64,000 nt of DNA from Bdellovibrionales bacterium (lineage in GTDB: Bacteria; Bdellovibrionota; Bdellovibrionia; Bdellovibrionales; UBA1609): contig OZ242172.1 in assembly GCA_965205645.1 (NCBI GenBank), positions 120,863-184,862 on the forward strand, written 5' to 3'. Positions 4,368-64,000 of the stretch are shown here, in pieces. Made by a program: the position numbers and the translations under genes. The notes beneath the pieces were generated by a model, which did no database searches, had not been told where the DNA came from, and saw only the letters and a program-made list of their open reading frames with translations. Positions within the stretch are counted from its first letter, which is position 1, and every line of letters begins with the position of its first letter.

Positions 4368-5162
4368 TTATTTTTCCAAGCTGGGGATAATAATAGGCGT
4401 TGGTTCATCATCATCGCTTAACCGCATACTTTCCAAAACGAGAAAAGGAATGAGTACAGAGTTACTATTATTTGCTGTTGCACCAAACGTTTGTAGCAAC
4501 GGAATAAAAATTGGCATCGGTTCAATATCATCGCTTGTAGCTTTTCGTAGATTATTTGTATAAGCCCTCAAATGAATATCGTCCTGATAACTATAGCTCT
4601 TATAAGTACTATTATCATGAAAGGAAAAATAAGACGAATAATGTATATTATTATAAGAAACATAAATCCCAGTGACATCATGGTTTTCTGGATAGCTCAC
4701 TTGTGCCAACATCTTCCCATCATGAGAATTGAACCGCAGGCCATCACAATGAAAAGAAAAATTCAAAAACACTACGACGGGTTTATCTATATTATCTCTT
4801 GTAGAAAAGCATCGTGTAAATATATTACTGGAAGCAATCTGCCACTCCGATTGCTGTGCACTATGAGTATACTTCATTGCAAACTCATTATTATCATCTT
4901 GAGTGACTAACCAACCTTCAGGAGTTCGCATAATAATTAATTGATAGGGCACATTGATCCACCGATTATTACGATGAGCCGTCATCACAACAATCGTATT
5001 TAAACGAGAATCATGCACTTGATCTAAAAGAGAGGATAAATGCGGACTTAAATCCAGGTAAGCACCATCTGATATCTGGCTATTATTAACAGCAGTCGCA
5101 CTGTTTATCGTAACAACAGCTAGTAGAAGTAAAGTATAAATAAATTTCTTAAAATCATTCAT
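4368..5162 (-). CDS. hypothetical secreted protein
   Basis: Signal-peptide-like N-terminus 'MNDFKKFIYTLLLLAVVTINSATA'. No recognisable domain. It follows the regulator gene on the same strand with a 21-nt gap. Confidence 0.5.
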   Translation of the reverse strand: MNDFKKFIYTLLLLAVVTINSATAVNNSQISDGAYLDLSPHLSSLLDQVHDSRLNTIVVMTAHRNNRWINVPYQLIIMRTPEGWLVTQDDNNEFAMKYTHSAQQSEWQIASSNIFTRCFSTRDNIDKPVVVFLNFSFHCDGLRFNSHDGKMLAQVSYPENHDVTGIYVSYNNIHYSSYFSFHDNSTYKSYSYQDDIHLRAYTNNLRKATSDDIEPMPIFIPLLQTFGATANNSNSVLIPFLVLESMRLSDDDEPTPIIIPSLEK

Positions 5163-5183
5163 TGTTTTAACTCACTTATTTGC

Positions 5184-6434
5184 TTATTTAAGCAAAATTT
5201 TCACCCCTTTATCAAAATAGTATCCTTCTTTTTTTCTAAAAATATATTTAGGATTACTATAATCTGGCTCCACCAATTCACGTAATCTTTTAACTGTCAC
5301 ATAAATCTTGTTATCATGAGTGCAAGGATCGTATTTTTGTTTCCACACTTTTTCCACTAATGCTTCTTTAGAGTATACTGTGCCTGGATTAGTCACAAAA
5401 AGCCGTAACATATCCAATAAAATAAACTGATTTTTAAAGTTCACATTCCCTTTTTGTTTTTCTACCAGCAATTTATTATCAAAATTCACTACGATATCGT
5501 AACTAACAATATTCTCTCTTAATTGCTCCAGAGCTTGATCAACGTTCCGGTACAGTTTTTTAAATATATCCTGATGAATGGATTTTTTAGCTAAATTAAG
5601 AAAAATAGAAGCTTGTTCGTAATCTTCTTTTTTCATATAGTTTATGCCCATGAAATAAAATAAATAAGGAGAAAGATGTTTTTTCTCCATACTTTTTTGA
5701 GAAAGCTCATAACAAACCCAGTAGAGTTTTTCTGCAGAATCACATTTCTTTTCTTTCCTTAAAATATTAGCTTTTAAAAGATAATAAGCCAGTTCTAGTT
5801 TTTGTAGATCTTCTTTAACTATCTTCAAAGTCTGTGACAAAGGAAATGTGGCCGTAGATGGTTCCCATCGCTTCAGTTTTAGTTCCGCTTCCAGAGTTTT
5901 ACATTGCTCCAATAGCTGTTCCATATTAGTTAATTCCTGTACAGCCACCGGCATCTGGTTGTCTTCATTGTATAGTAAACTAGTAAACCCATAAGAAATA
6001 AAACACATATTAATTTTAGCGTTTAATAACTGACACGTATTATTATTTTCTTCTGCTATTTTTTGCGCTTGAATGGATTGAGCTAAGCCTTGATTCAAAT
6101 GTTGCTGAGCAACTTCACATTGATTTTGTCTAAAATAGCACATTCCCAAAACATAATGAAAGATTGCTTGATCTCCGCCAGATTCTTTCCGCTTCCATAT
6201 TATATCCACCAAGTCCTTGCGGATTTGATCAATTTCATCAAAATTTTCCATTTCTATATGTATAGCAATCAAAGATACTTGTACTTGAATGTATCTTTTA
6301 TATTGAGCTTCTTTTAGAAAATAATCGCCAGCTGCTTTTAAAGTCTGAACAGATTCTTTTAAATGACCTGCAGCCAGCTGATGACTACCTAATGTAAATA
6401 AATGTTCCGCCTGATTCGTTTCTATCAAATTCAT
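5184..6434 (-). CDS. transcriptional regulator, N-terminal TPR-like helical repeats plus C-terminal OmpR/PhoB-type winged helix
   Basis: The C-terminus 'LLDMLRLFVTNPGTVYSKEALVEKVWKQKYDPCTHDNKIYVTVKRLRELVEPD...YIFRKKEGYYF' fits the Trans_reg_C pattern. The upstream ~300 aa are helical repeat-like. No receiver domain. Confidence 0.65.
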   Translation of the reverse strand: MNLIETNQAEHLFTLGSHQLAAGHLKESVQTLKAAGDYFLKEAQYKRYIQVQVSLIAIHIEMENFDEIDQIRKDLVDIIWKRKESGGDQAIFHYVLGMCYFRQNQCEVAQQHLNQGLAQSIQAQKIAEENNNTCQLLNAKINMCFISYGFTSLLYNEDNQMPVAVQELTNMEQLLEQCKTLEAELKLKRWEPSTATFPLSQTLKIVKEDLQKLELAYYLLKANILRKEKKCDSAEKLYWVCYELSQKSMEKKHLSPYLFYFMGINYMKKEDYEQASIFLNLAKKSIHQDIFKKLYRNVDQALEQLRENIVSYDIVVNFDNKLLVEKQKGNVNFKNQFILLDMLRLFVTNPGTVYSKEALVEKVWKQKYDPCTHDNKIYVTVKRLRELVEPDYSNPKYIFRKKEGYYFDKGVKILLK

Positions 6435-6550
6435 TAAACCCCTCCTGGGCTATCACCTCCAGATCTGGCTGATACGATGTGTAATTGGGCTTAATACTCC
6501 GTGTCAAGAGCTTTGTCTAATTTATTTTGGTAAATGATTAAAAACCAGAC

Positions 6551-8983
6551 TCAGTGTTTTTGCATGGAAGTCTGTCTGGTGTAATGAGCTTTCAATCCGG
6601 ATATCTTTTCAAAACGGCGTTTAAATAGATCCTGAGCGGATTTAATTTCCAGTGCACTCACTAAAATTTGGTCAACATGATGAACAGCAATAATATTTAA
6701 TTTGTTTAAAATTTCTACAGGTATACTTTTCTCTTTATCTTTCAAATCTTTTTCATTTTCTTTAGGAATAATAATGATTTTAATGCCCTCTCGGTGAGCA
6801 GCTAGAATTTTTTCTTTTAACCCGCCAATCGCTAATACACGTCCACGAAGTGTCACTTCTCCAGTCATTGCAATCGTTTTTTTAACAGGAAAACGTGTAA
6901 TAGCAGATACAAGACTAGTAGTGATAGCCACACCGGCAGAAGGCCCATCTTTTGGCACGGCTCCCTCCGGCACGTGGATATGAAAATCATGTTTTTCAAA
7001 AAAATCTATAGGTAATTCAAACAATGGTCCGCGAGATCGTACATAACTTAAAGCCGCTGAACAGGATTCTTTCATTACATCACCTAACTGTCCGGTAAAA
7101 ATAAATTTTCCTCTACCTGGAACAACTGCAGCTTCAATAAACATGAGATCCCCACCAGTTTCTGTCCAAGCTAGCCCACTTGTTAGCCCAATTTCACTTC
7201 GTTTCTCCACTTTTCCATATTTAAATTTCCTTACACCTAGATATTTTTTAATTTTCGCCGGAGAAATAACATAATTCATATACTGACTATCTTTTTTATT
7301 AGCAGACACAATTTCCCTTACCAGCTTTCTACAAACTTTCGCAATTTGCCGTTCTAATTCCCTAACACCAGCCTCTCTTGTATAAAAACGAATAATATTT
7401 CTTAGTATTTCTTTATTAAAAGTTAATTTATATTTACTGATACCGTGTTTTTTAATTTGCTTAGACACAAGGTATTTACTGGCAATATTTAATTTTTCAT
7501 TTTCTGTATATCCTTCAATAGGAATAAGCTCCATTCTATCTAATAGGGGGTAAGGGATATTATGAACAGAATTAGCAGTTGTAATAAATAAAACTTGAGA
7601 TAAATCATAATTAACTTCTAGATAATGATCTTGAAAAGTGTGATTTTGTTCTGGATCTAATACTTCTAAAAGTGCACTGGAAGGATCTCCACGAAAGTTC
7701 GTACTGATTTTATCTATTTCATCTAACAAAAAAAGCGGATTGCCATGCTTCATTTTACGTAAGCATTGAATAATTTTCCCTGGCATCGCACCCACATAAG
7801 TACGTCGATGGCCTCTAATTTCTGCTTCATCCTGCACACCTCCCATAGCCACACGAGTAAAAGGACGCCCTAAAGCGCGGGCAATTGAACGAGCTAGCGA
7901 AGTTTTTCCAACACCTGGAGGTCCAATGAAACACAAAATAGGGCTTTTTGGCCGATCCGTCATTGTTCGCACAGCTAAATATTCTAAAATTCTTTCCTTT
8001 ACTTGTATCAACCCCCAATGATCTTCATTTAAAATCTTTTCAGCAACGACTAGATCTTTTTTTTCTTTAATATAATCCTCCCACGGCAAAGCAATTACCC
8101 AGTCCACATAATTTCTTACGACGGCAGCTTCCGCACTCATGGGAGACATTATCTTTAGTTTTTTTATTTCCCGTTCAACTTTCTCCTTCGCTTCATTAGA
8201 CCATTTCATATTAGCTGCTTTTTTTACAAGATCCTGAATCTCTTTTTGAAAATCATCTTTTTCCCCAAGTTCTTTTTGTATTGCCTGTAATTGTTCATTT
8301 AAATAGTATTCTTTTTGAGAACGTTCCATTTGTTCTTTCACACTGGTTCTTAGTTTTTTTTCTACTTTTAGAATTTCTATTTCTCGCGTAATATGTTTGA
8401 GTACCATCTTAAGCCGTTTCCCAGGATCAAATGTTTCTAGTAGTTTTTGCTGATCCTCCATTTTTAAACTTAATTGAGAAGCAATGTTATCTGCTAACTC
8501 ACTGAAATTTTCTATTGTAGCAACACGAGCTAATACTTCCGGTGGCACTTGTTTATTTAATTTTACATAACTTTCAAAAGAAGAACACACCATACGAGTC
8601 AGTGCATTTGCTTCTGTTTCGTTTTTCATACCTTCTTCAATAAGCTCTGCTTCCACTTGAAAAAATTTGTCTGTTTGAACATATTTCCTAATATGCACCC
8701 TGCCTTTGCCTTCTATAAGCGCTTTCACGGTACCATCAGGTAATCTAAGGTGTTGAATAATTGTCCCCAGAGTTCCTACCAAATGAATATCTGCAGGAAG
8801 GGGATTCACGTTTCTAGCTTCTTTTTGAGCAACTAACACAATATCTGTCTTCTCATCCATCGCCTTTTGGAGCGAATGGATACTTTTTTCACGCCCCACA
8901 AAAAGCGGCATCATCATATGAGGAAAAATCACTAAATCTCTTAGAGAAAGTAAAGGTAGTGTAAGAATATTCGGATTTTTCAT
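6551..8983 (-). CDS. lon: ATP-dependent Lon protease
   Basis: Lon N-domain, Walker A 'GPPGVGKTS', Walker B 'LFLLDEIDK', and protease motifs 'PKDGPSAGV' and '[14 protein letters not shown]'. Confidence 0.97.
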
Positions 8984-9117
8984 TGATTTCCTATTTGCTT
9001 TTCAAGCTTTTCGTATACTCTAACTTTTTTAAATCATTTTTTTAAGATTTTTTTTATATTTCAGGATCTTTTTTTTACAGATGATATTGCAGTTTTTTAT
9101 CCATCATCAATGGAGTT

Positions 9118-10407
9118 TTAAGCAATTCCTGTAGAAGATATAGGTGTTTTATTACTCTTTATTTTCCGGCTATAAACAATATGTGGTTGTTTACGCTCTA
9201 AAATCACATCTTTCGTGATAACACATTTCTGGATAGAAGGATCGGATGGAGCATCATACATAATGGTTAACATAGCTTCTTCAATAACCCCTCTTAAGCC
9301 CCGCGCACCCGTTTTCTTTTGAATAGCTAGCTGCGCGATGGCCTCTAAAGCTGCTGGTTCAAATACAAGGTCCACTCCTACTTGTCGCATTAATTTTTTA
9401 TATTGTTTCACTAATGCATTTTTAGGCTTCTGCAAAATATCCACCAGCGCTCTCTTATCCAATGGATCCAATACAGCCACAACAGGTAGACGACCGATAA
9501 ATTCTGGGATTAAACCGTAACGAAATAAATCACTCGACTCTACTTTTTTCAATAAATTATGTTTGAGATGTATTTTTTCCTTATCTGTTTTGATATCTGC
9601 AGCTATTCCCATCGCTCGGTGAGATATGCGATTTTCTATAATATTTTCCAAGCCAACAAAAGCTCCTCCGACAATAAATAAAATATTGGAAGTATCTACT
9701 TGAATAAATTCCTGTTGTGGATGCTTTCTTCCTCCTTTAGGTGGCAAGTTAGCAACAGTGCCTTCTAGAATTTTTAGCAAAGCCTGTTGTACTCCTTCAC
9801 CACTAACATCCCTTGTAATAGAAGGATTTTCCGATTTACGAGTTATTTTATCTATTTCATCAATATAAATAACCCCTCTTTGGGCTTTCTCCACATCATA
9901 ATTAGCTGCCTGTAGTAAATTCAAAATCACATTTTCCACATCTTCTCCAACATAGCCAGCCTCTGTGAGAGCTGTTGCATCTGACATCGCAAAAGGCACT
10001 TTCAATATACGCGCAATCGTTTGAGCTAAAAGGGTTTTTCCAGAACCAGTCGGTCCAATCAGCAAGACATTGCTTTTAGTAATTTCTACATCTTCTTCAT
10101 CCTTAGAAGTCATACTAATAGAAGATGTATCCACTCGTTTATAGTGATTATACACAGCAACCGACAGGATTTTTTTAGCCAGTTCCTGGCCAATAATATA
10201 ATCATTCAGATGCGCATGAATCTCAGCAGGCGTGGGAATAGTAGGTAAAGGGGATTTACTTTGCGAATGACTCACTTCTTCCGCAATCAGTTGAACACAT
10301 AAATTAACACATTCATTACAAATACAAACCCCATCTCCAGAAATAAGATTTGCAACTTCTTTTTTATTTTTTTGACAAAAACTACAACTATACTTTTGTG
10401 TGCTCAT
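9118..10407 (-). CDS. clpX: ATP-dependent Clp protease ATP-binding subunit ClpX
   Basis: Zinc ribbon 'CSFCQK...CICNEC', Walker A 'GPTGSGKT', 'IYIDEIDK', 'GARGLR'. Confidence 0.97.
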
Positions 10408-10600
10408 ATATTCACTTTCTTTCGACTGGACACAATATAATCCACTAAGTAAAAAGTCAAAACCCTCTTTGCACTTATTGGATAATATCTTTTCATCCTT
10501 CCCATAGTTTTGTTCCTGTCTTTATATGTCTCTAACCTAAGCATGACAATATACCATTTTTAGTCCCTACGAATAAATATCGTAGCTTCTTTCCTCTCAT
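10404..10600 (-). pseudogene. clpP: internally deleted clpP relic whose stop still overlaps the clpX start codon
   Basis: Minus-strand translation gives 'EERSYDIYS*' (intact ClpP: 'GERSYDIYSRLL'). After a frame change it gives '[35 protein letters not shown]' (intact ClpP: '[34 protein letters not shown]'). The TGA at 10406-10404 overlaps the clpX ATG (ATATGA). The catalytic core (~130 codons) is missing. Confidence 0.75.
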
Positions 10601-10765
10601 TGGAATTTATTTGGATGCTAGTGAAAAGCTATTGCTCCTTCATGGCTCCTGCCAGACTTAAGTTCTGTTCATTATATCCGGCGTATGTCTTTATTAATGT
10701 ATATGTCGGGTATCTCTTACAGGCACTTAAGCGATTATAATAATATTGGAAACAATACTAGATGA
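10601..10765 (-). repeat. degenerate second copy of the clpP 5' UTR/promoter region (original about 12556-12720)
   Basis: Collinear anchors are shared with 12556-12720: AAGGAG RBS, 'agacttaagtt', 'atgtcttta', 'atatgtcgggt', 'cacttaag', 'ggaa.aaatacta.atgaaa'. Confidence 0.65.
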
Positions 10766-10769
10766 AATA

Positions 10770-11723
10770 TTAAAAAATGAACCTCACATGTTTATCCTGT
10801 TCCATAAAATCCTTCAATATTTTATGGATATCCTTTGTCATATCAGAATATTTATAATGTTCAAAACAGGAACTTTTTGACTGGAAATTTTTACATTGCA
10901 TGGTTTCTACTCTACGTTCACGTGCGTATTCCAAAATATATATCTTATCGGATATTAAATCAGCCATAGAACGACAACTGGATTTTAGTGTTTGATAGCT
11001 TACGTAATTCGCACTAGGAAAGAAGTCTGTTCGCTCATAAAATGTTAACTGGTCTACACAACTTTTAGCTGCTTTATTAATAGCGCTTAGAACAGTTGAT
11101 ATTTCCTGCTGCTGAGCAACGGAGGCGTCAATCATGCTATCCATAAACAAGTAAGTATATCTTACAAAGTAAAGCATAGGCAAATTGACAAATACAGAAA
11201 CACTTATGTCACTTTGAGGAATTTTTTCATCCATGATAGATGGATTTTTAAGAGTAAATTGAATGAGCTGAGCGGCATTTTCATAATACACAATAGCTTC
11301 ATTAAAATTAACAAAATATATAGATTCCTGAAGGGAATTATATAAGATATTTTGAGACGTATCTAAAGTTTTATTTGTCAAATAATACACTCCCATCCAA
11401 TAATTAGCTGGAATGTAACCTAAATGGGCGGCTTTTTTGATATACTGAATACCTTCCAAATCTATTTCTCTTCCAATAAAAAAATCAATTTCTTCATTAA
11501 GAGATCTAATAAATTCTTGTACCAAATTGGATTCTTCTTGCTCTTTTGCCTTCTGATCACATAGATAGCGAAGCCCTAAATAATAATACTGTTCAGCCGT
11601 CATATTTTCCGTTTCTCTTAAAGGAGCATTTGCAGCTCCTAAACAGTCTATATCAACATCTATCTTCGCATAGACAAACAAAGGGCTTACGATTCCTATC
11701 AGAAATATTAAAAATGATTTCAT
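10770..11723 (-). CDS. secreted Sel1-like repeat protein (paralog of 27464-28522)
   Basis: Likely start is Met25 (ATG at 11723), giving the signal peptide 'MKSFLIFLIGIVSPLFVYA'. Sel1-like 'IKKAAHLGYIPANYWMGVYYL' and 'FNEAIVYYENAAQL'. Collinear similarity to the 352-aa ORF at 27464-28522. Confidence 0.6.
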   Translation of the reverse strand: MKSFLIFLIGIVSPLFVYAKIDVDIDCLGAANAPLRETENMTAEQYYYLGLRYLCDQKAKEQEESNLVQEFIRSLNEEIDFFIGREIDLEGIQYIKKAAHLGYIPANYWMGVYYLTNKTLDTSQNILYNSLQESIYFVNFNEAIVYYENAAQLIQFTLKNPSIMDEKIPQSDISVSVFVNLPMLYFVRYTYLFMDSMIDASVAQQQEISTVLSAINKAAKSCVDQLTFYERTDFFPSANYVSYQTLKSSCRSMADLISDKIYILEYARERRVETMQCKNFQSKSSCFEHYKYSDMTKDIHKILKDFMEQDKHVRFIF

Positions 11724-11804
11724 ACAATGGATCCTTAACAATAAATTAAGGAAAATATTACTGTCTGCAAATTTATCCGTCAATGATAAGAACAAAATAA
11801 AACT

Positions 11805-11949
11805 ACACTAAGTAAAAATTACACAGCGATTCATTGATCATTTTGAAATAATCCTTATTGAATAAATAACTTTTTATTTTGTCACAAAACCGGAGAATAA
11901 AAAATGTGGATGAATTATGAGATATAATCCGATGATTTATGTTTTGTTT
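11805..11949 (-). pseudogene. clpX: probable decayed clpX 5' fragment downstream of the intact clpP
   Basis: Two collinear anchors match the real clpX 5' end. 'gttttgtgacaaaataaaaagtt' matches 'tttttgtcaaaaaaataaaaaagaagtt', and 'aatgaatcgctgtgtaattt' matches 'aatgaatgtgttaattt'. Spacing is 55 vs 64 nt. The relic contains stops. Confidence 0.4.
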
Positions 11950-12555
11950 TTACACATTGACTTTTTTCCGACTGGATACAATATGATCCACTAAGCGAAA
12001 ATTTAAAGCTTCCTTAGCGCTCATGTAACAATCCCGATCCATTGCTTCTGTAAGTTCTTTTTCTTTTTTACCCGTATGTTTCGCATAAATTTCCGCCATT
12101 TTTTTCTTTGTCAGTGACATCTCCCGAGCTTGTATTTCAATATCACTCACTTGTCCGGATAACCCCTCTCCTGCAACATGCGGCTGATGAATCATCACTC
12201 GTGCGTGAGGTAAGATATATCTTTTACCAGGTGCTCCGGAAGCTAGTAACAGAGAACCCATACTGGCAGCTAGTCCAATACAATAAGTTCTCACATCACA
12301 CTTAATAAACTGCATAATATCATATAGTGCGATTCCCGCTGTCACACTACCCCCTGGAGAATTAACATAAAGATGAATATCCTTTTCTGGATTATCCATT
12401 TCCAAAAAGAAAATTTGCGCGATGATGCTGTTAATCACCTCATTAGTCACTGCCGTGCCCAGCATAATGATACGATCTTTCAACAGCCGCGAATAAATAT
12501 CGTAACTTCTTTCCCCTTTCGGGGTTTGTTCAATCACAATAGGAACGAGGACCAA
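11950..12555 (-). CDS. clpP: ATP-dependent Clp protease proteolytic subunit ClpP
   Basis: 'VPIVIEQT..GERSYDIYSRLL', 'NSPGGSVTAG', Ser in 'AASMGS', His in 'MIHQP'. TTG start 6 nt after AAGGAG. Confidence 0.95.
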   Translation of the reverse strand: MVLVPIVIEQTPKGERSYDIYSRLLKDRIIMLGTAVTNEVINSIIAQIFFLEMDNPEKDIHLYVNSPGGSVTAGIALYDIMQFIKCDVRTYCIGLAASMGSLLLASGAPGKRYILPHARVMIHQPHVAGEGLSGQVSDIEIQAREMSLTKKKMAEIYAKHTGKKEKELTEAMDRDCYMSAKEALNFRLVDHIVSSRKKVNV

Positions 12556-12812
12556 AATAAACTCCTTATTTAACTGATTAGACTTAAGTTTTATTTACTA
12601 TATTATCTTGATGTCTTTAACACTATATGTCGGGTGTCTTGTGTATTCACTTAAGCCCTTATTTGGAATAAATACTAAATGAAAAACTTAGGATAAAGGT
12701 TTGTCCGCTCATTGAAAATATGTTACACATCATCCACTGATCAAAACAGTGAGTTTTAAGCGATTACTACATATAAAAACATAACTAATCACTTAACAAG
12801 GAGTACAGAATA

Positions 12813-14303
12813 GTGAAATTAACTATTTCCAGTTCGACAGATGGCCATCCAGCTTGCCAAATCGTCTTTGCATCTAAAAAAGGAGCAACAGACCTGAAGT
12901 CCGTTCCAGCACTCGCCCGCTTAGTCACACAACTAAATCAACAAAAAATATTCACTGGCCGATTAGAGGAAGCTTTATTTATTCCTTGTGGAGGATTAGG
13001 AAAAGCTAAACATTTACTCTTGATTGGCTTAGGCGATCCAGGAAAAGTTAATCCTGAAGTGATTCGCGCTGCCTGTAGCAAAGCGATTCGGAAGTTAGAA
13101 ATACATCAACAAGAATCAGCGAGCTTGGATTTTTCATTGCTTCTTCCTTTTATTAAGAACTCACAAAATCTAGCATCAACGATTAGTGAAGGATGTCTTT
13201 TAGCAGCTTATCACTTTACTAAGAAGCAGAAAAAAAACAAAAATACTGGAAGCGTCAAGCAGATCACTCTTCTTCGCACAAAAGATAATGTAGCTATTAA
13301 AAAAGGGCTGGCACAAGGATCCGCTGTCGCTGAAGGAGTTAATTTTGCACGTTGGCTGGCCGATCACCCGCCTAATCTAATGACTCCCACTATATTAGCA
13401 ACAGAAACACAAAAAAAATGTGAGAAAATAAACGGGTTAGAAATCACTGTATGGAATAAGGCGCGCATTACAAAAGAAAGAATGGGTGGAATCTTAGGCG
13501 TGTCAGCGGGTAGCAATCAAGAACCACGAGTAATGATTATGAAATATCAACCGACGGGTGCAAAAGGAAAACCAATTTGTTTTGTCGGTAAAGGACTCAC
13601 TTTTGATTCTGGCGGAATCAGTCTTAAGCCAGCGAAAAATATGGATGAGATGAAATTTGATATGTGTGGAGGAACGGCAGTGATCGGAGCGTTGCTGACT
13701 ATTGCACGTTTAAAACTCAATGTGCCGGTTTTAGGCTTAGTGGGAGCTTCAGAAAATATGCCGGGTGAAGGGGCAACAAAGCCGGGAGATATTTTAACCG
13801 CTCGCAATGGAACAACAATGGAAGTGTTAAACACAGACGCAGAAGGACGGTTGGTATTGGCAGACATTTTATCTTATGCTAGCGAACAAAAACCAGAATG
13901 GATTATAGATGCCGCCACTTTAACCGGGGCTATTGTAGCTGCCTTAAGTAATATTTATACCGGCTTATTTACTCGCCACCTAAGTCTTAGAGATCAAATT
14001 CAAAAAGCAGGTGAAAATGTAGGAGAAAAAATCTGGGCAATGCCGTTAGATGATTTTCATGTAAAGGACATTCAAAGTACAATAGGAGACGTCGCCAATA
14101 TATCATCTGTTTCCGGTGGAGGCAGCTCTACCGCTGCTGCATTTTTAGAGCATTTTGTGGACAAACATATCCCGTGGGCACATTTGGATATTGCCGGTAC
14201 CGCTTGGAATGTATCTAATCGTCTAGCTTACTGTCGGCCTAAGTCGGCATCCGGAGTCATGGTGAGAACTTTTGTTGAACTTGCCCGCACACATATCCGA
14301 TGA
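12813..14303 (+). CDS. pepA: leucyl aminopeptidase (M17)
   Basis: 'VGKGLTFDSGG', 'NTDAEGRLVLAD', 'DIAGTAW'. GTG start. Confidence 0.9.
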   Translation: MKLTISSSTDGHPACQIVFASKKGATDLKSVPALARLVTQLNQQKIFTGRLEEALFIPCGGLGKAKHLLLIGLGDPGKVNPEVIRAACSKAIRKLEIHQQESASLDFSLLLPFIKNSQNLASTISEGCLLAAYHFTKKQKKNKNTGSVKQITLLRTKDNVAIKKGLAQGSAVAEGVNFARWLADHPPNLMTPTILATETQKKCEKINGLEITVWNKARITKERMGGILGVSAGSNQEPRVMIMKYQPTGAKGKPICFVGKGLTFDSGGISLKPAKNMDEMKFDMCGGTAVIGALLTIARLKLNVPVLGLVGASENMPGEGATKPGDILTARNGTTMEVLNTDAEGRLVLADILSYASEQKPEWIIDAATLTGAIVAALSNIYTGLFTRHLSLRDQIQKAGENVGEKIWAMPLDDFHVKDIQSTIGDVANISSVSGGGSSTAAAFLEHFVDKHIPWAHLDIAGTAWNVSNRLAYCRPKSASGVMVRTFVELARTHIR

Positions 14304-16350: not shown

Positions 16351-17298
16351 TCAGCTTTTTAGGTTATTTGTATTCATCATCTGATACGTTCTTTTATTAA
16401 GTGTTTTATAAATAATTCGCAGTTTCTTATTTTTCCCATGCTGAGCAATACGTTTTAAATGATTTAATAAACGATAAACCGATTCTGCATATAAAGACTT
16501 ATCTTTCTCTTTTTTTATCTGACCCCATATTTTACGATAGAGTTCACCAAGTTGTCTCTCCGCATGGATAGACCATTCACCGGATTCTAGTAACATAGAT
16601 TGAGTTAGATAAAATTGATAATGAATAGCTACTTTTAAAAAAGTTTTTAGCTGAATTTTATCCGGGTGAATATGGGATTCACCCATTAAATATAAATAAC
16701 GAGCAAAATTTTGCTCTATGACAGAATGAACCGGAGAGGTGCTTCTTATTTTTTCCATATTTTGGTGCACTTGCTTGTGAATATCTAGCCCCATTTGTTC
16801 TTCTCCTACGCGAATATACGCTAATGCTAAACGAGCAGGATATTCAATAAGACGTTTTTCTTCCGAAAGTAAATAAAGATGTGGATGAGCAGCTTTTAAA
16901 ACCTCTAAAGTCTTATCTGCATCTCCCAAACATTCGTAAATATAACTTAATAGCAAATAACTATGCGCTTTAACCCGAGCGTGCTCTTGTTGAATCAATT
17001 GATGATATAAGGTTTTTGCTTTATTACATTCTCCTAACTTTTTATGTAAGCCCGCTAAATTATATAAAGAGGCCCATTGTAATTCGTGCCCTTCATATCG
17101 TTTAGCTAACTTTTCAAAAACAGTTCTGGCATGATCATAACGTCCTTCTGTCATATCGGTGAAAGCTTTCTCAAATTGCGCTAGATCTTTAGAATTTACG
17201 TCACCATGATCGGAAGAATGGGGGCGGTTTTGCTGCATAAAAACGCAAGATGATAGCCCTAAAAATAAAACAACGATTCTTTTTTTCATCTTATTCAT
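16351..17298 (-). CDS. TPR-repeat lipoprotein
   Basis: Lipobox 'LFLGLSSC'. TPR-like repeats ('YDHARTVFEKLAKRY', 'WASLYNLAGLHKKLGECNKAKTLY'). Its 5' end overlaps the 3' end of lysS by 4 nt (17295-17298). Confidence 0.6.
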   Translation of the reverse strand: MNKMKKRIVVLFLGLSSCVFMQQNRPHSSDHGDVNSKDLAQFEKAFTDMTEGRYDHARTVFEKLAKRYEGHELQWASLYNLAGLHKKLGECNKAKTLYHQLIQQEHARVKAHSYLLLSYIYECLGDADKTLEVLKAAHPHLYLLSEEKRLIEYPARLALAYIRVGEEQMGLDIHKQVHQNMEKIRSTSPVHSVIEQNFARYLYLMGESHIHPDKIQLKTFLKVAIHYQFYLTQSMLLESGEWSIHAERQLGELYRKIWGQIKKEKDKSLYAESVYRLLNHLKRIAQHGKNKKLRIIYKTLNKRTYQMMNTNNLKS

Positions 17299-59531: not shown

Positions 59532-61190
59532 TTACATCATAGGCATCCCGCCGCCAGCTCCCATACCAGGAGGTACACCACCTGCCGGTGAGTCATCCTT
59601 TTTAGGTGCATCCGCAATCATAGTTTCTGTTGTAAGCATTAAAGATGCAACCGAAGCAGCATATTCTAATGCTGAACGAACCACTTTCTTAGGGTCAATA
59701 ACACCAGACTTTTGTAAGTCCTCATACTTTCCTGTTAAAGCATTAAACCCAAAGGATTGTGATGATGATGTGTTTTGATGTGCTTCTAACACCTTATACA
59801 GTACAATAGCTCCATCTAAACCAGCATTAGCAGCAATCTGCCGAATAGGTGTTTCACAAGCTTTTTTAACAATGTTTACACCAAAACGTTCTTCATCGCT
59901 GACCTTTAAGGAGTCAAGCATAGTAGAAGCTTTTAACAAAGCGACTCCTCCACCAGGAACAATTCCTTCTTCTACAGCTGCTCGAGTAGAATTTAGAGCA
60001 TCTTCCACCCTTGCTTTTTTCTCTTTCATTTCTACTTCTGATGGTGCACCAACATGAATAACCGCAACCCCACCAGTTAGCCTAGCTAGTCTTTCCTGTA
60101 ATTTTTCCTTATCATAATCACTTGTACTTTCTTCCACTTGTGATTTAATTTGCGCTACCCGATCAGCAATATCCGCTTTTTTTCCTGCCCCATCGATAAT
60201 GATTGTATTATCTTTATCAATGACTATTCTTTTAGCTCTACCTAAATTCTGAACTGTCACGTTGTCTAATTTTTCTCCTGCCTCTTCACTCACCACACGA
60301 GTGCCCGTTAGAACAGCAATATCCTCTAACATAGCTTTTCTGCGATCTCCAAATCCAGGAGCTTTGACAGCCGCTACTTGCAAGGTACCTCTTAACTTAT
60401 TAACCACTAAAGTAGCTAAAGCTTCTCCTTCTACGTCTTCCGCAATAATTAAAAGAGGTTTATTGGCCTGTGCCACTCCTTCTAAAGCTTTTAATACATT
60501 TTTCATAGAACTAATTTTTTTGTCATAAACGAGTAAAAAACAGTCTTCTAAAATCACTTCCATTCTTTCTGCATTAGTCACAAAATAAGGAGATAGGTAT
60601 CCTCGATCAAATTGCATACCTTCGACAACATCTAACTCCGTTAGAGAGGTTTTACTTTCTTCCACAGTAATAACACCTTCTTGACCCACTTTTTCCATTG
60701 CCTGTGCAATAATATCTCCAATCTCTGAATCATTATTAGCGGAAATAGTACCCACTTGAGCAATCTCTGTCCTACCTTTTACAGGACTAGATAACTCAGT
60801 TAGTTTACTTGTAACCGCCGCGACTGCTTTATCAATACCTTTTTTAATTTGTGTGGGATTATGGTGGGCTGTAATATATTTTAACCCTTCACGATAAATG
60901 GATTCAGCTAAAATAGTAGCACTAGTCGTACCATCACCAGCTTCTTCATTAGTTTTATTGGCTACTTCTTTAACCATCTGAGCACCCATGTTTTCAAATT
61001 TATTTTTCAGTTCAATTTCTTTAGCAACTGTTACACCATCTTTAGTAATCACTGGTGCACCAAAGGATTTTTCAATAGCTACATTGCGACCTTTAGGACC
61101 TAAAGTAATTTTCACAGCATCTGCCAGTACACTCACTCCACGAGCAATAGCATCTCTTGCACCATCACCAAAACGAAGTTCTTTGCTCAT
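59532..61190 (-). CDS. groEL: chaperonin GroEL
   Basis: '[12 protein letters not shown]', '[12 protein letters not shown]', C-terminal '[11 protein letters not shown]'. Confidence 0.98.
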
Positions 61191-61222
61191 AATAATTCCT
61201 CCCTATTTAAAAACTACAAATT

Positions 61223-61510
61223 TTAATTTAATACTCCATAAACATCTTCTTCTCTCATCATCAGCAACTCTTCCCCTTTAACTTTAAATTCCGTACCGGA
61301 ATATTTGCCAAATAAAATCTTATCTCCAGGCTTTACTTCCAGCGGCAACCGTTTACCATCATCTGTTATACGACCCTGACCGGTATATAATACCTTTCCC
61401 ATCTGAGGTTTTTCCTTAGCTGTGTCCGGAATAATAATTCCGCCAGTTGTTTTTTCCTCTTCTGGAAGACGCTGTACAATAATACGATCATTAAGCGGAC
61501 GAATATCCAT
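61223..61510 (-). CDS. groES: co-chaperonin GroES
   Basis: '[12 protein letters not shown]', '[13 protein letters not shown]', 95 aa, immediately upstream of groEL. Confidence 0.97.
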
Positions 61511-61560
61511 AACTATTTGCTCCTTGTTCTTTCATTAGATAAATAACTCAGATTGTCATC

Positions 61561-61589
61561 AAATATGAAAACAAAAGGTAGCTTGTCAA
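61561..61589 (-). promoter_or_regulatory. candidate sigma-70-type promoter of groESL
   Basis: On the minus strand, TTGACA (61589-61584), a 16-nt spacer, then CATATT. It lies ~50 nt upstream of the groES RBS AAGGAG. No CIRCE element seen. Confidence 0.3.
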
Positions 61590-61644
61590 GTAAAAACCTT
61601 TATAGAAGTAATGAATCGCAAAAATTACTAATTATTTTAACATT

Positions 61645-64000
61645 TTATTTAAAAAATGCTGTTTTTAAATAAAGACTTGTCTTTCCTTGTCCAGCTGTCA
61701 TCAATTCTGGCAATGATCCTTGTGCAACAATGCGCCCTCCTTCTGGCCCTGCTCCTGGGCCCATATCAATTAAATAATCTGAGCGAGTCAGAGCTTCCAA
61801 GTTGTGCTCGATCAATAAAACGCTGTTCCCTTTTTCCACCAAGTTATGTAGTAACTTCATCAGAAGCTGAACTTCGCGAAAATGCAGTCCCACTGTAGGC
61901 TCATCCAGGATGTACAAACAAGGTGAATCATCGGCATGTATTAATTCACGCACAAGCTTTAGACGCTGTGATTCCCCACCAGATAACGTAGAAAGGCTTT
62001 GTCCCAATACAAGATAGTCCATCCCTACTTTCTTTAAAAAAGCAAGCGGCCTCCAAATAGCCGGATAAGAAACAAAAAAATCCAAAGCTTGTTGAACGTT
62101 CATATTTAAAATCTGATAAATATTTTTACCTTTCCACTGAGCTTTTAACACTTTCGGCTGAAACCTTTTACCCTGACATTCTTCACACAAAATACGAACA
62201 GGATCCATAAACACCATTTCCACCTCTTGATATCCTAATCCACGACAAACAGAGCAACGTCCTCCATCTACATTCAAACTAAAATCCCTAGGAGAAAGAG
62301 GACAAGATCGAGCAATCAGTTGCCGAATAGAATCATAAATTTTTAAATAAGTAACTGGCAAACTTCGTCTCGTTTTTTCTATGGGAGAAGTATTCACTAA
62401 AACTATACGACGAAGATAAGATGCCCCTTTTAGTGTAGAATATATACCACCAGGTAACATTTTTTTATTAATTGCACGTGCCAGCGCCGGATACAGAGTG
62501 TATGTCACTAAAGTGGATTTGCCAGAACCACTTGGTCCAGTCATACAAACTAAACGATTTAAAGGTAATCGCAAATGTACATTTTTTAAATTATATGTCT
62601 GACATCCCTCAATTTCTAAAAAATATTTATATTCTTTAATTGCAACGGGCCGACGTGTTTTTGCTAAATGAATTGCATTAGAAAGTTTACTATTGGATAG
62701 CGGATTTTTTGTTAGGTAAGAACTAGTTAAACTTTTACTTTTTAAAAATTGCTCCTTTGATCCTGAAAAAACTACCTTTCCACCATTTTCACCAGACCCT
62801 GGTCCTAATTCTACAATAAAATCTGCAGATTTAATCATATCTGGATCATGTTCTACTACTACCAAGGTATTACCTAGTGTTTTTAATTTTTGCAGAACAG
62901 CACTTAAACAAGCAGTATCACTTGGATGTAACCCCACCGTGGGTTCATCTAATACATACAGAGTTTGAGAGAGACCAAGCCCTAATTGATGCGCCAAACT
63001 TAAACGTTGAAGTTCACCTGAAGAAAGAGTTCGCGCTGCACGATTTAAATTTAAATAGCCAAGTCCAATTGTATTTAATGTTTCTAAAAGAAAACGAATT
63101 TTACGAATAACTTCTGGTATTTTTTTTCGCTCCAAAACAGAAAATTTTATTTTCTGAAAAAAATTAAATAAAGATTGAATGTCCCTATCCAACATCTCTG
63201 GCAAAGTAAATCCTTTAAATGTAATGTAAGAAACTTCCTTTCTAAATCTCTTACCTTGACATTCTTCACATATCTTAGGGGTTTTATATCTGGATAAAAA
63301 TACCCGTACCGGGAGTTTATATTTTTTAGTCTCCAAATAATTAAAATAACCTTGAACACCTATAAATCTTGTATCTCCTTCCCAAATTTTCTTTTTTTGT
63401 TTTTTAGACAATGTTTCCCAAGGAGAATGCCAATCTATTTTTTGTAATCGGCAAAATTGTCTTAAACTTCTAAGTTCTGCAGTAGCAGAAGGCATTGTAA
63501 AAGGTTCTATCGCTCCTGCTGCCAATGATTTCCAAGGAGAACGTACAATCTTATTTTCATCCAATACAAAATGATTACCAAAACCCCTACATTCCGCACA
63601 AGCGCCTAAAGATTCATTAAAATTAAAAAAAGAACTTTGTATCGTAAAAGGAAATTGGTAGGCACACACAGGGCAACAAGATTGCCGACAACTGATATAT
63701 AAATTTTCACCCGTAGTGCTTACAATCCTTAAAAGTGCGCGGGAAGGATGGTATGTTTCTACTGCTCGTTGAGCCGTTTTTAAAGAATCTGCTAATTGCA
63801 CATGATTCTCAAACGCCAACTGATCGACAACTAAATATACTTGTCCTTTAGGCCATGTTTTAATTTGGTTAATTTCTTGCAGATGATATCTAATACTAGC
63901 CGCCGGTTTTTCTGAATGATAAATATAACGAAAACCATCTTTCAATAGCTGCATTTTTTTAGCCATGACACGTTGGTTTTTTTGTCGACTGGAATAACGA
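61645..64000 (-). CDS. uvrA: excinuclease ABC subunit A (5' end beyond the window)
   Basis: Zinc modules 'CPVC...CAEC' and 'CEECQGKRF', ABC signature 'LSSGELQRLSLA', second Walker A 'GPSGSGKST', 'LSGGESQRLKL', 'LYILDEPTVGLH'. The frame stays open upstream of Met 63966 to base 64000, and the first Walker A segment is absent. Confidence 0.9.
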   Translation of the reverse strand, partial: RYSSRQKNQRVMAKKMQLLKDGFRYIYHSEKPAASIRYHLQEINQIKTWPKGQVYLVVDQLAFENHVQLADSLKTAQRAVETYHPSRALLRIVSTTGENLYISCRQSCCPVCAYQFPFTIQSSFFNFNESLGACAECRGFGNHFVLDENKIVRSPWKSLAAGAIEPFTMPSATAELRSLRQFCRLQKIDWHSPWETLSKKQKKKIWEGDTRFIGVQGYFNYLETKKYKLPVRVFLSRYKTPKICEECQGKRFRKEVSYITFKGFTLPEMLDRDIQSLFNFFQKIKFSVLERKKIPEVIRKIRFLLETLNTIGLGYLNLNRAARTLSSGELQRLSLAHQLGLGLSQTLYVLDEPTVGLHPSDTACLSAVLQKLKTLGNTLVVVEHDPDMIKSADFIVELGPGSGENGGKVVFSGSKEQFLKSKSLTSSYLTKNPLSNSKLSNAIHLAKTRRPVAIKEYKYFLEIEGCQTYNLKNVHLRLPLNRLVCMTGPSGSGKSTLVTYTLYPALARAINKKMLPGGIYSTLKGASYLRRIVLVNTSPIEKTRRSLPVTYLKIYDSIRQLIARSCPLSPRDFSLNVDGGRCSVCRGLGYQEVEMVFMDPVRILCEECQGKRFQPKVLKAQWKGKNIYQILNMNVQQALDFFVSYPAIWRPLAFLKKVGMDYLVLGQSLSTLSGGESQRLKLVRELIHADDSPCLYILDEPTVGLHFREVQLLMKLLHNLVEKGNSVLLIEHNLEALTRSDYLIDMGPGAGPEGGRIVAQGSLPELMTAGQGKTSLYLKTAFFK

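Follow-up and report, generated by a model that had tools for sequence, protein, structure and literature searches.

A clpP relic in front of clpX in a Bdellovibrionales bacterium: a decayed gene copy that probably serves as a clpX control region

The clpP and clpX genes of a Bdellovibrionales bacterium (GenBank assembly GCA_965205645.1, contig OZ242172.1) lie apart from each other, and the DNA directly in front of clpX is the remnant of a second clpP. The locus was analysed in a 64-kb stretch of this contig, referred to here as the window (WIN in comparisons). A functional clpP (11950..12555, 201 aa) is found 1.5 kb upstream of clpX (9118..10407, 429 aa), beyond an inserted ORFan gene (10770..11723, 317 aa), and the 362-nt non-coding stretch before clpX (10408..10769) holds a clpP relic (10404..10767) which alone keeps the ATGA junction with the clpX start. 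All of these features, including the parts of the relic described below, are on the minus strand. Uneven conservation of the relic among four genomes suggests that clpX now uses it as its promoter and leader, a reading that we consider probable, with some reserve. A preliminary description of the window, made from the sequence alone, had recognized an internally deleted clpP pseudogene and a second clpP upstream region before clpX, and had proposed a pairwise alignment and a comparison with related genomes. The loci of relatives fetched for this comparison are designated L081-L089.

Alignment of the reverse complement of window positions 10380-10830 with the reverse complement of 11900-12830 (blastn) confirmed that the similarity is significant. 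Two high-scoring segment pairs (HSPs) were obtained. The first pairs relic positions 10767..10511 with 12684..12429 (61% identity, E-value: 8e-15) and spans approximately 130 nt of the upstream region, the ribosome-binding site (RBS) and the first ~40 clpP codons. The second pairs 10522..10396 with 12069..11942 (67% identity, E-value: 6e-14) and covers the last ~40 codons. The two HSPs are colinear, which indicates duplication-derived homology to the functional paralogue in the same genome. An independent repeat search of the relic against clpP recovered blocks of 83 nt (73% identity), 39 nt (77%), 28 nt (93%) and 24 nt (83%), the 28-nt block belonging to the 5' coding remnant. With the ClpP protein as query, tblastn placed residues 161-201 at 10529..10407 (51% identity, E-value: 6e-6) and residues 15-26 at 10593..10558 (83% identity).

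In the direction of transcription, the relic begins with duplicated clpP upstream sequence, continues through 5' codons and a degenerate middle to the last ~40 codons, and closes with a TGA stop. The upstream region carries a copy of a bipartite motif (10703..10731; CTTAAGTG-N13-ACCCGACATATA), which is a candidate distal promoter of clpX. This is followed by the leader (10632..10699), extending from just after the -10-like box to an orphan Shine-Dalgarno sequence, AAGGAG. The 5' coding remnant (10567..10631) corresponds to clpP codons ~5-26 and reads 'EERSYDIYS' followed by TAG (10596..10567, with the stop at 10569..10567), just as previously described. The degenerate middle (10471..10566) spans the internal deletion joint. 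The conserved 3' remnant (10408..10470) represents the last ~20 clpP codons and includes an invariant 25-mer (GGTTTTGACTTTTTACTTAGTGGAT, 10464..10440) and the clpX Shine-Dalgarno region (GAAAGAAAG, 10423..10415). A sigma70-like site with the sequence TTGACT-N17-TATTGT (10432..10460) is a candidate proximal promoter of clpX; this relic-specific site is an addition to the earlier account.

At the protein level the relic is a pseudogene that has been disabled in several ways. The distance from RBS to stop is 234 nt, compared with 619 nt in the intact gene, a net loss of ~385 nt (codons ~43-162) that leaves only ClpP residues ~5-26 and ~161-201. Loss of the catalytic core, as proposed earlier, is evident from the deletion of Ser98 and His123 and the substitution of the Asp of the DRD motif. 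The TTG start has been removed by a 9-nt deletion, and a frameshift precedes the 3' part. The frame bearing the clpP-like C-terminal end (24 residues, not shown) runs to 10404, so that the relic TGA (10406..10404) overlaps the clpX ATG (10407..10405) in the manner first noted. A Pfam scan of the 46-aa remnant ORF returned no match, and the relic does not belong among functional ClpP proteins. The upstream gene has the conserved domain PF00574 (CLP_protease; E-value: 2.3e-74) over its full length, contains all of the catalytic Ser (ASMG), His (HQP) and Asp (DRD) motifs and has a dN/dS of 0.04-0.09. Its position 1.5 kb upstream of clpX, on the far side of an inserted gene, agrees with the preliminary description. 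The relic is not an assembly artefact: four independent assemblies all carry it, with an identical deletion.

The best ClpX match among species-representative genomes was only 67% identical and came from a Bdellovibrionales metagenome-assembled genome; a large protein collection supplied graded ClpX relatives (99-75% identity) on long contigs. The clade is small and uncultured, its closest named relatives are Bdellovibrionales metagenome-assembled genomes, and contigs of related bacteria measure 1.4-1.8 Mb. ClpX identity to the window is 99% for L081, 92% for L082 (from a sponge metagenome) and for L089, 85% for L084 and 84-76% for L085-L088; the ClpX proteins of L089 and L082 are 96.5% identical. 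In the outgroups L085-L088, pepA is divergent from an intact clpP and clpP overlaps the clpX start, by ATGA in L085, L087 and L088 and by 1 nt in L086. Because it is present in these four outgroups, the overlapping clpP-clpX arrangement is the ancestral layout. L084 is without the insert and has an 83-nt spacer between clpP and clpX. L081 and L082 share the window order of clpP, ORFan, relic and clpX. L089 has clpP, an AT-rich spacer of ~190 nt, the relic and clpX, with no ORFan; most parsimoniously, the ORFan was secondarily lost in this genome and the relic retained. The spacer (L089:6607-6800) has no detectable similarity to the ORFan or its flanks, and no deletion endpoints were identified in it. 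Exact-word scans of JGI metagenomes found nothing with a relic-specific 21-mer and two chance matches, lacking flanking similarity, with a 20-mer.

The internal deletion is identical in all four relics (WIN, L081, L082 and L089). In a neighbour-joining (NJ) tree of relic and intact segments (271 columns), the four relics form one clade and the four intact copies another, each with 100% bootstrap support, and the relic topology, ((WIN,L081),(L082,L089)), mirrors the ClpX identities. The separation of the two clades therefore indicates one duplication before the genomes diverged and no gene conversion since. Ongoing gene conversion, which would uphold the similarity between relic and intact copies without any selection on the relic, would have a suitable substrate in direct repeats 1.5-1.9 kb apart, and the promoter boxes are identical in both copies. 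It is contradicted by this tree and by relic-specific derived states common to the genomes (for example, CCGGAT, GTCTGGCA, CCATGAAGGAG and GGTTTTGACT), and is extremely improbable. In L082, homology of the relic to the clpP upstream region reaches ~90 nt further 5' than in the window, and the original duplication therefore took in more of the pepA-clpP spacer than the window relic preserves. Set against the layout of L085-L088, the relic retains the original junction on the clpX (3') side, and the intact copy retains the one on the pepA (5') side. The earlier suggestion that the relic is the ancestral partner of clpX accordingly holds for its position, as the L085-L088 junction shows, but neither copy is the 'original', both being products of one duplication.

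The rate of change along the relic is the main evidence that parts of it are in use. Four-fold degenerate sites of clpP, clpX and lon (518-533 sites per pair) served as the neutral yardstick, giving identities of 62.5% for WIN-L082, 61.8% for WIN-L089 and 70.0% for L082-L089; the Nei-Gojobori dS for WIN-L082 is 0.63-0.83. In the same order of genome pairs, the 96-nt middle (10566..10471) is 62, 55 and 68% identical, which is the neutral rate. The 5' coding remnant (10631..10567) is 72, 57 and 69% identical, not significantly above neutral. The leader (10699..10632) is the most conserved part at 84, 88 and 92% identity (P=1e-4 to 4e-6 against neutral), and the last 63 nt (10470..10408) are 83, 81 and 86% identical (P=5e-4 to 3e-3 against neutral). 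When the conserved parts were compared with the middle by Fisher's test, the P values were 4e-4, 4e-4 and 7e-3. The invariant 25-mer and the 20 invariant positions of the promoter-like boxes each have P<1e-4 at 62% neutral identity. In the 3' block, nearly all WIN-L082 differences are non-synonymous and none in the last 19 codons is purely synonymous; since the substitutions are mostly amino-acid-changing, the constraint acts on nucleotides. Parts of the relic are thus under purifying selection at the nucleotide level.

The above-neutral conservation of the promoter-like boxes and the leader in four genomes supports the suggestion of the preliminary description that clpX may now be driven by the relic promoter. 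Several points weigh against this reading. The relic sequences number only four and amount to two deep lineages, and four-fold sites are an imperfect neutral standard. The bipartite motif is absent before groES and lon in the window, and could be an operator rather than a promoter. Sigma70-like matches are no commoner than in shuffled AT-rich DNA (16 found compared with 12.8 expected), and the -10-like hexamer of L082 is weaker (TACTGT) and falls below the scan threshold. No intrinsic terminator was predicted from clpP to clpX in WIN, L082 or L089, and read-through from upstream promoters is therefore possible and could suffice. The lack of a predicted terminator, the chance-level promoter matches and the small number of relics also speak for a rival reading, in which the relic would be inert and decaying, with clpX transcribed by read-through from the clpP or ORFan promoters (or both) and the conservation due to alignment bias or local variation in mutation rate. 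Against an inert relic, the middle 96 nt evolve at the four-fold rate within the same gap-free alignment in which the flanks are 20-30 points higher, in three genome pairs, and the 25-mer and the box positions are conserved well beyond neutral expectation. L089 has, moreover, deleted the ORFan yet kept the relic, which favours a control region. An inert relic is considered unlikely.

The bipartite motif of the intact clpP (12627..12655, minus strand; CTTAAGT-N14-CCCGACAT) lies ~99 nt before the clpP start. Described by the pattern TT-A-(A/G)-N-N, 12-15 nt, (C/G)CCG(A/T)-N-A, the motif lies 75-143 nt upstream of clpP in every one of the nine clade genomes, and is present at two of eight more distant Bdellovibrionota loci (L004 and L012), taken from the species-representative genomes, which were not used in deriving the pattern. 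Elsewhere there are eight matches in 428 kb, four of which are the relic copies. Neither the exact motif nor the 9-mer ACCCGACAT is found in the 64 kb of the window outside the two clpP-type sites. None of the four relics differs in the boxes CTTAAGTG and ACCCGACATATA, while the 13-nt spacer is variable; the -10-like box and the clpX ATG are 288-294 nt apart in each of the four genomes, despite several indels. The motif upstream of clpP is a candidate promoter for an alternative sigma factor, or a candidate operator. The sigma32 promoter consensus is CTTGAA-N13-15-CCCCATnT, and the intact clpP motif has sigma32-type geometry with a partial match in both boxes. Assignment of the motif to sigma32 and the heat-shock response is unsupported, as groES-groEL and lon do not have it. 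The groES-groEL genes (61511..59532) are preceded by an ordinary TTGACA-N16/17-CATATT. No CIRCE-like inverted repeat was seen upstream of them (61511-61620, minus strand); the heat-shock control of groESL is therefore hard to recognize, and it is unlike that of clpP. A second conserved block, TA(A/G)CATATTTT...(A/G)GACAAA, lies upstream of the bipartite motif (window 12690-12745) in WIN, L081, L082 and L084-L087; the longer L082 relic has kept it too (L082:5600-5640). This block may be part of the divergent pepA promoter or a further clpP promoter.

The leader could alternatively be kept mainly as RNA, in the form of a structured 5' untranslated region (UTR) or a small RNA, made from the relic promoter, that tunes the stability or translation of the clpX mRNA; the promoter copy would then be only one of the reasons for its retention. 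Consistent with this, the leader is the most conserved segment, and more so in the relics (~84-93% identity) than before the intact clpP genes (76-82%). The orphan Shine-Dalgarno sequence AAGGAG is conserved in the relics though the start codon is gone. Complementarity is seen between two derived blocks specific to the relics, GCCGGA and TCTGGC (5 bp in L082); both are invariant and so show no covariation. Against a structured RNA, RNAalifold found no consensus structure in the relic leader, folding energies are ordinary by z-score and the minimum-energy fold changes from one genome to another. A search of the window with Rfam 15 gave nothing at the gathering threshold except one tRNA elsewhere, and nothing in 10300-12900 even when matches with E<=1 were allowed. 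The leader is not followed by a terminator. A primary role as RNA is therefore rated as quite unlikely, and a role of the leader as part of the clpX control region is preferred.

The proximal sigma70-like site matches the consensus at 9 of 12 positions, ends 24 nt before the clpX ATG and is also present in L089. Its TTGACT hexamer is a derived, relic-specific state; the intact copies and outgroups carry GCTTTAAA, GCGCTGGA and similar sequences at this position. The -10-like part stems from the conserved D-H-I-V codons of clpP. All four relics have an identical 25-mer over the -35 hexamer and the spacer. Because consensus matches of this quality occur at chance level, the evidence for the site is its conservation and not its score. 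At the 3' end of the intact clpP of WIN, L081 and L082 (window 11950-11975), AAGAAAG has become AAAAAAG by a synonymous change, the codons AGA/CGA AAG AAA being replaced by CGG AAA AAA. The relics keep AAGAAAG or AAGAAAA, and in the outgroups and relics the AAGAAAG site provides the ribosome-binding purines of clpX. Its loss from the intact copies is as expected, because that end of the gene no longer serves clpX.

A 3' remnant translated as an upstream ORF of ~30-46 codons ending at ATGA would provide another reason for conservation, either through ribosome coupling to clpX or through a small ClpP C-terminal peptide. A frame of 43-51 codons with in-frame ATGs does extend to the clpX-overlapping TGA in WIN, L081 and L082. 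In L089, however, a 4-nt deletion shifts this frame and leaves no stop at ATGA, and nearly every WIN-L082 difference in its last 19 codons is non-synonymous. The genomes have no conserved start codon or Shine-Dalgarno sequence for it, and for most of its length its openness is inherited from clpP. The L089 frameshift and the pattern of substitutions lead us to reject a conserved upstream ORF or translational coupling, and translation of the remnant in any form is very unlikely.

Apart from the relic-bearing genomes, only L084 has lost the overlap of clpP with clpX. Its spacer (L084:5906-5969) starts with a terminator-like hairpin (11-bp stem, T-rich tail) at the clpP stop, followed by TTGACT-N17-TACTAT ~31 nt before clpX, which is in line with the promoter reading of the relic. 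The L084 spacer shares the exact 10-mer TTTTGACTTT with the invariant 25-mer of the relics. Its similarity to the relic is marginal (7-81 of 500 shuffles score as well), and it could be either a relic that has been much shortened or a clpX promoter that arose by convergence.

The proposed course of events, in which the duplication route, the promoter activity and the sigma factor are inferred from the present arrangement, is as follows. In the ancestor, pepA was divergent upstream of clpP, and clpP overlapped clpX by ATGA. A segment of ~0.8-0.9 kb (the clpP upstream region and clpP) then came to flank both ends of an insert, a new segment of ~1.2 kb carrying the gene for a putatively secreted ORFan protein. 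This may have occurred by tandem duplication followed by landing of the ORFan segment between the copies or, alternatively, by single-crossover integration of circular DNA carrying the ORFan and a clpP copy, which would give exactly such a repeat-insert-repeat structure. The upstream copy stayed functional, and the downstream copy lost its start, ~385 nt of catalytic core and its reading frame. The insertion would have separated clpX from its promoter and from translational coupling with clpP; because clpX was cut off in this way, selection would have kept the parts of the relic that clpX needs. These would be the bipartite promoter or operator motif (10731..10703), the ~65-nt leader (10699..10632) and the last ~60 nt (10470..10408), which hold the ribosome-binding region of clpX together with a sigma70-like promoter of newly improved sequence. 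The stretch between the kept parts drifts neutrally. clpX would now be transcribed separately from a copy of the control element of clpP itself, and the two partners would stay co-regulated.

The preliminary description had also suggested that clpX is now uncoupled from clpP. Physically and translationally this is so; in regulation, continued co-regulation is the more likely outcome, because the retained element is a copy of the one in front of clpP. clpX is thus probably still co-regulated with clpP. A further step would be to regard the dead clpP copy as a dedicated two-promoter control module of clpX, combining co-regulation in trans, a new basal sigma70-type promoter and RNA-level control through the leader. 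The new promoter would have arisen in former coding sequence once this was freed from coding constraint, and the leader would add a level of RNA control that the intact clpP leader does not have. This extended scheme is put forward tentatively, as a possibility; if true, it would document, in nature, how a duplicated promoter can rescue operon-like co-regulation once the operon has been disrupted.

The canonical clpP-clpX(-lon) operon of Proteobacteria (E. coli type) has a sigma32 promoter upstream of clpP. The locus described here resembles it in the order clpP-clpX-lon, in the overlapping or abutting junction of L085-L088 and in the sigma32-type geometry of the motif. It differs in that the functional clpP of the window is 1.5 kb away from clpX, and in that the motif matches sigma32 only in part and is missing before groES and lon. 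Another parallel is provided by Caulobacter crescentus, in which clpP and clpX are ~1.1 kb apart with cicA between them and clpX is transcribed on its own (PMC8119881). This separation lets sigma32 induce clpP but not clpX (PMC8119881). As in the Caulobacter clpP-cicA-clpX arrangement, clpP and clpX of the window are split by an unrelated gene. In the window, however, the inserted gene is a lineage-specific ORFan on the same strand, and clpX is preceded by both a clpP relic and a duplicated clpP promoter, neither of which has been described for Caulobacter. Separation serves different regulation of the two genes in Caulobacter, whereas the window suggests that co-regulation has been retained. 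The relic is also like other pseudogene remnants whose non-coding parts are in use, in that the promoter and the downstream translation-initiation region are kept and the rest is neutral; such retention is widespread in evolution and does not define a family.

No report of a clpP relic preceding or serving clpX turned up in the literature searches. Separate transcription of clpX is well known and the retention of the regulatory parts of a decayed duplicate is a familiar pattern, so that the case is a new example of a known and ordinary kind of event, well documented thanks to the neutral control inside the relic, and it leaves general knowledge of Clp proteases or gene regulation unchanged. 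What it shows is an essential two-gene protease operon that survived being split by a foreign gene, with the duplicate reduced to regulatory pieces. For annotation, the 362-nt gap before clpX is not a plain spacer and its 46-codon ORF is not a gene. The bipartite motif provides a candidate clpP promoter or operator for a poorly studied, small-genome Bdellovibrionota-like lineage.

The ORFan gene is separated from the intact clpP by a 226-nt spacer (minus strand). Only three homologues of its product were found among 5.8 billion proteins, all in relic-bearing genomes, and the gene is absent from L084-L088 as well as from L089. The protein belongs to no Pfam or PHROG family, with one sub-threshold Pfam match (TPR_27), and has a signal-peptide-like N-terminus and conserved cysteines. 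Its AlphaFold model is all-alpha with a pLDDT of 48.9, too poor for a fold search. The frame is open over 317-320 codons at 38% amino-acid divergence and dN/dS is 0.26-0.43, which is the pattern of a real, fast-evolving gene. An origin of the ORFan as a paralogue of a nearby 315-aa ORF (16351..17298) was ruled out (E-value: 0.23). The pepA-clpP-ORFan region of WIN and L081 (window 11300-14000) is 89-97% identical (dS 0.12-0.14), and clpX, lon and the downstream genes (window 4400-10400) are ~99% identical (dS 0.014-0.04), figures to be read with the proviso that L081 is a 3x-coverage contig and part of the differences may be sequencing errors. Such uneven divergence suggests that strains have recombined, the breakpoint lying close to the ORFan or the relic.

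pepA (12813..14303, plus strand) is divergent from clpP and encodes 496 aa in both WIN and L082. In L081 it is split into two ORFs of 265 and 203 aa (leucyl aminopeptidase; L081:2123-3590) by a frameshift or an assembly error. ClpX has the Pfam domains zf-C4_ClpX, AAA_2 and ClpB_D2-small, and the next gene is lon (6551..8983, minus strand). Just downstream of lon, all clade genomes encode a protein of ~416 aa (window 5184-6434) with faint TPR matches and a C-terminal Trans_reg_C domain (OmpR/PhoB-type DNA-binding), without a receiver domain; this is an unusual regulator architecture in a syntenic neighbour of the protease genes. Near the edge of the window, a 773-aa UvrA-like ORF (61645-63966, minus strand) matches UvrA models only from approximately model position 181 and below the equivalog cut-offs, and could be a shortened or variant UvrA or an ORF with a mis-set start.

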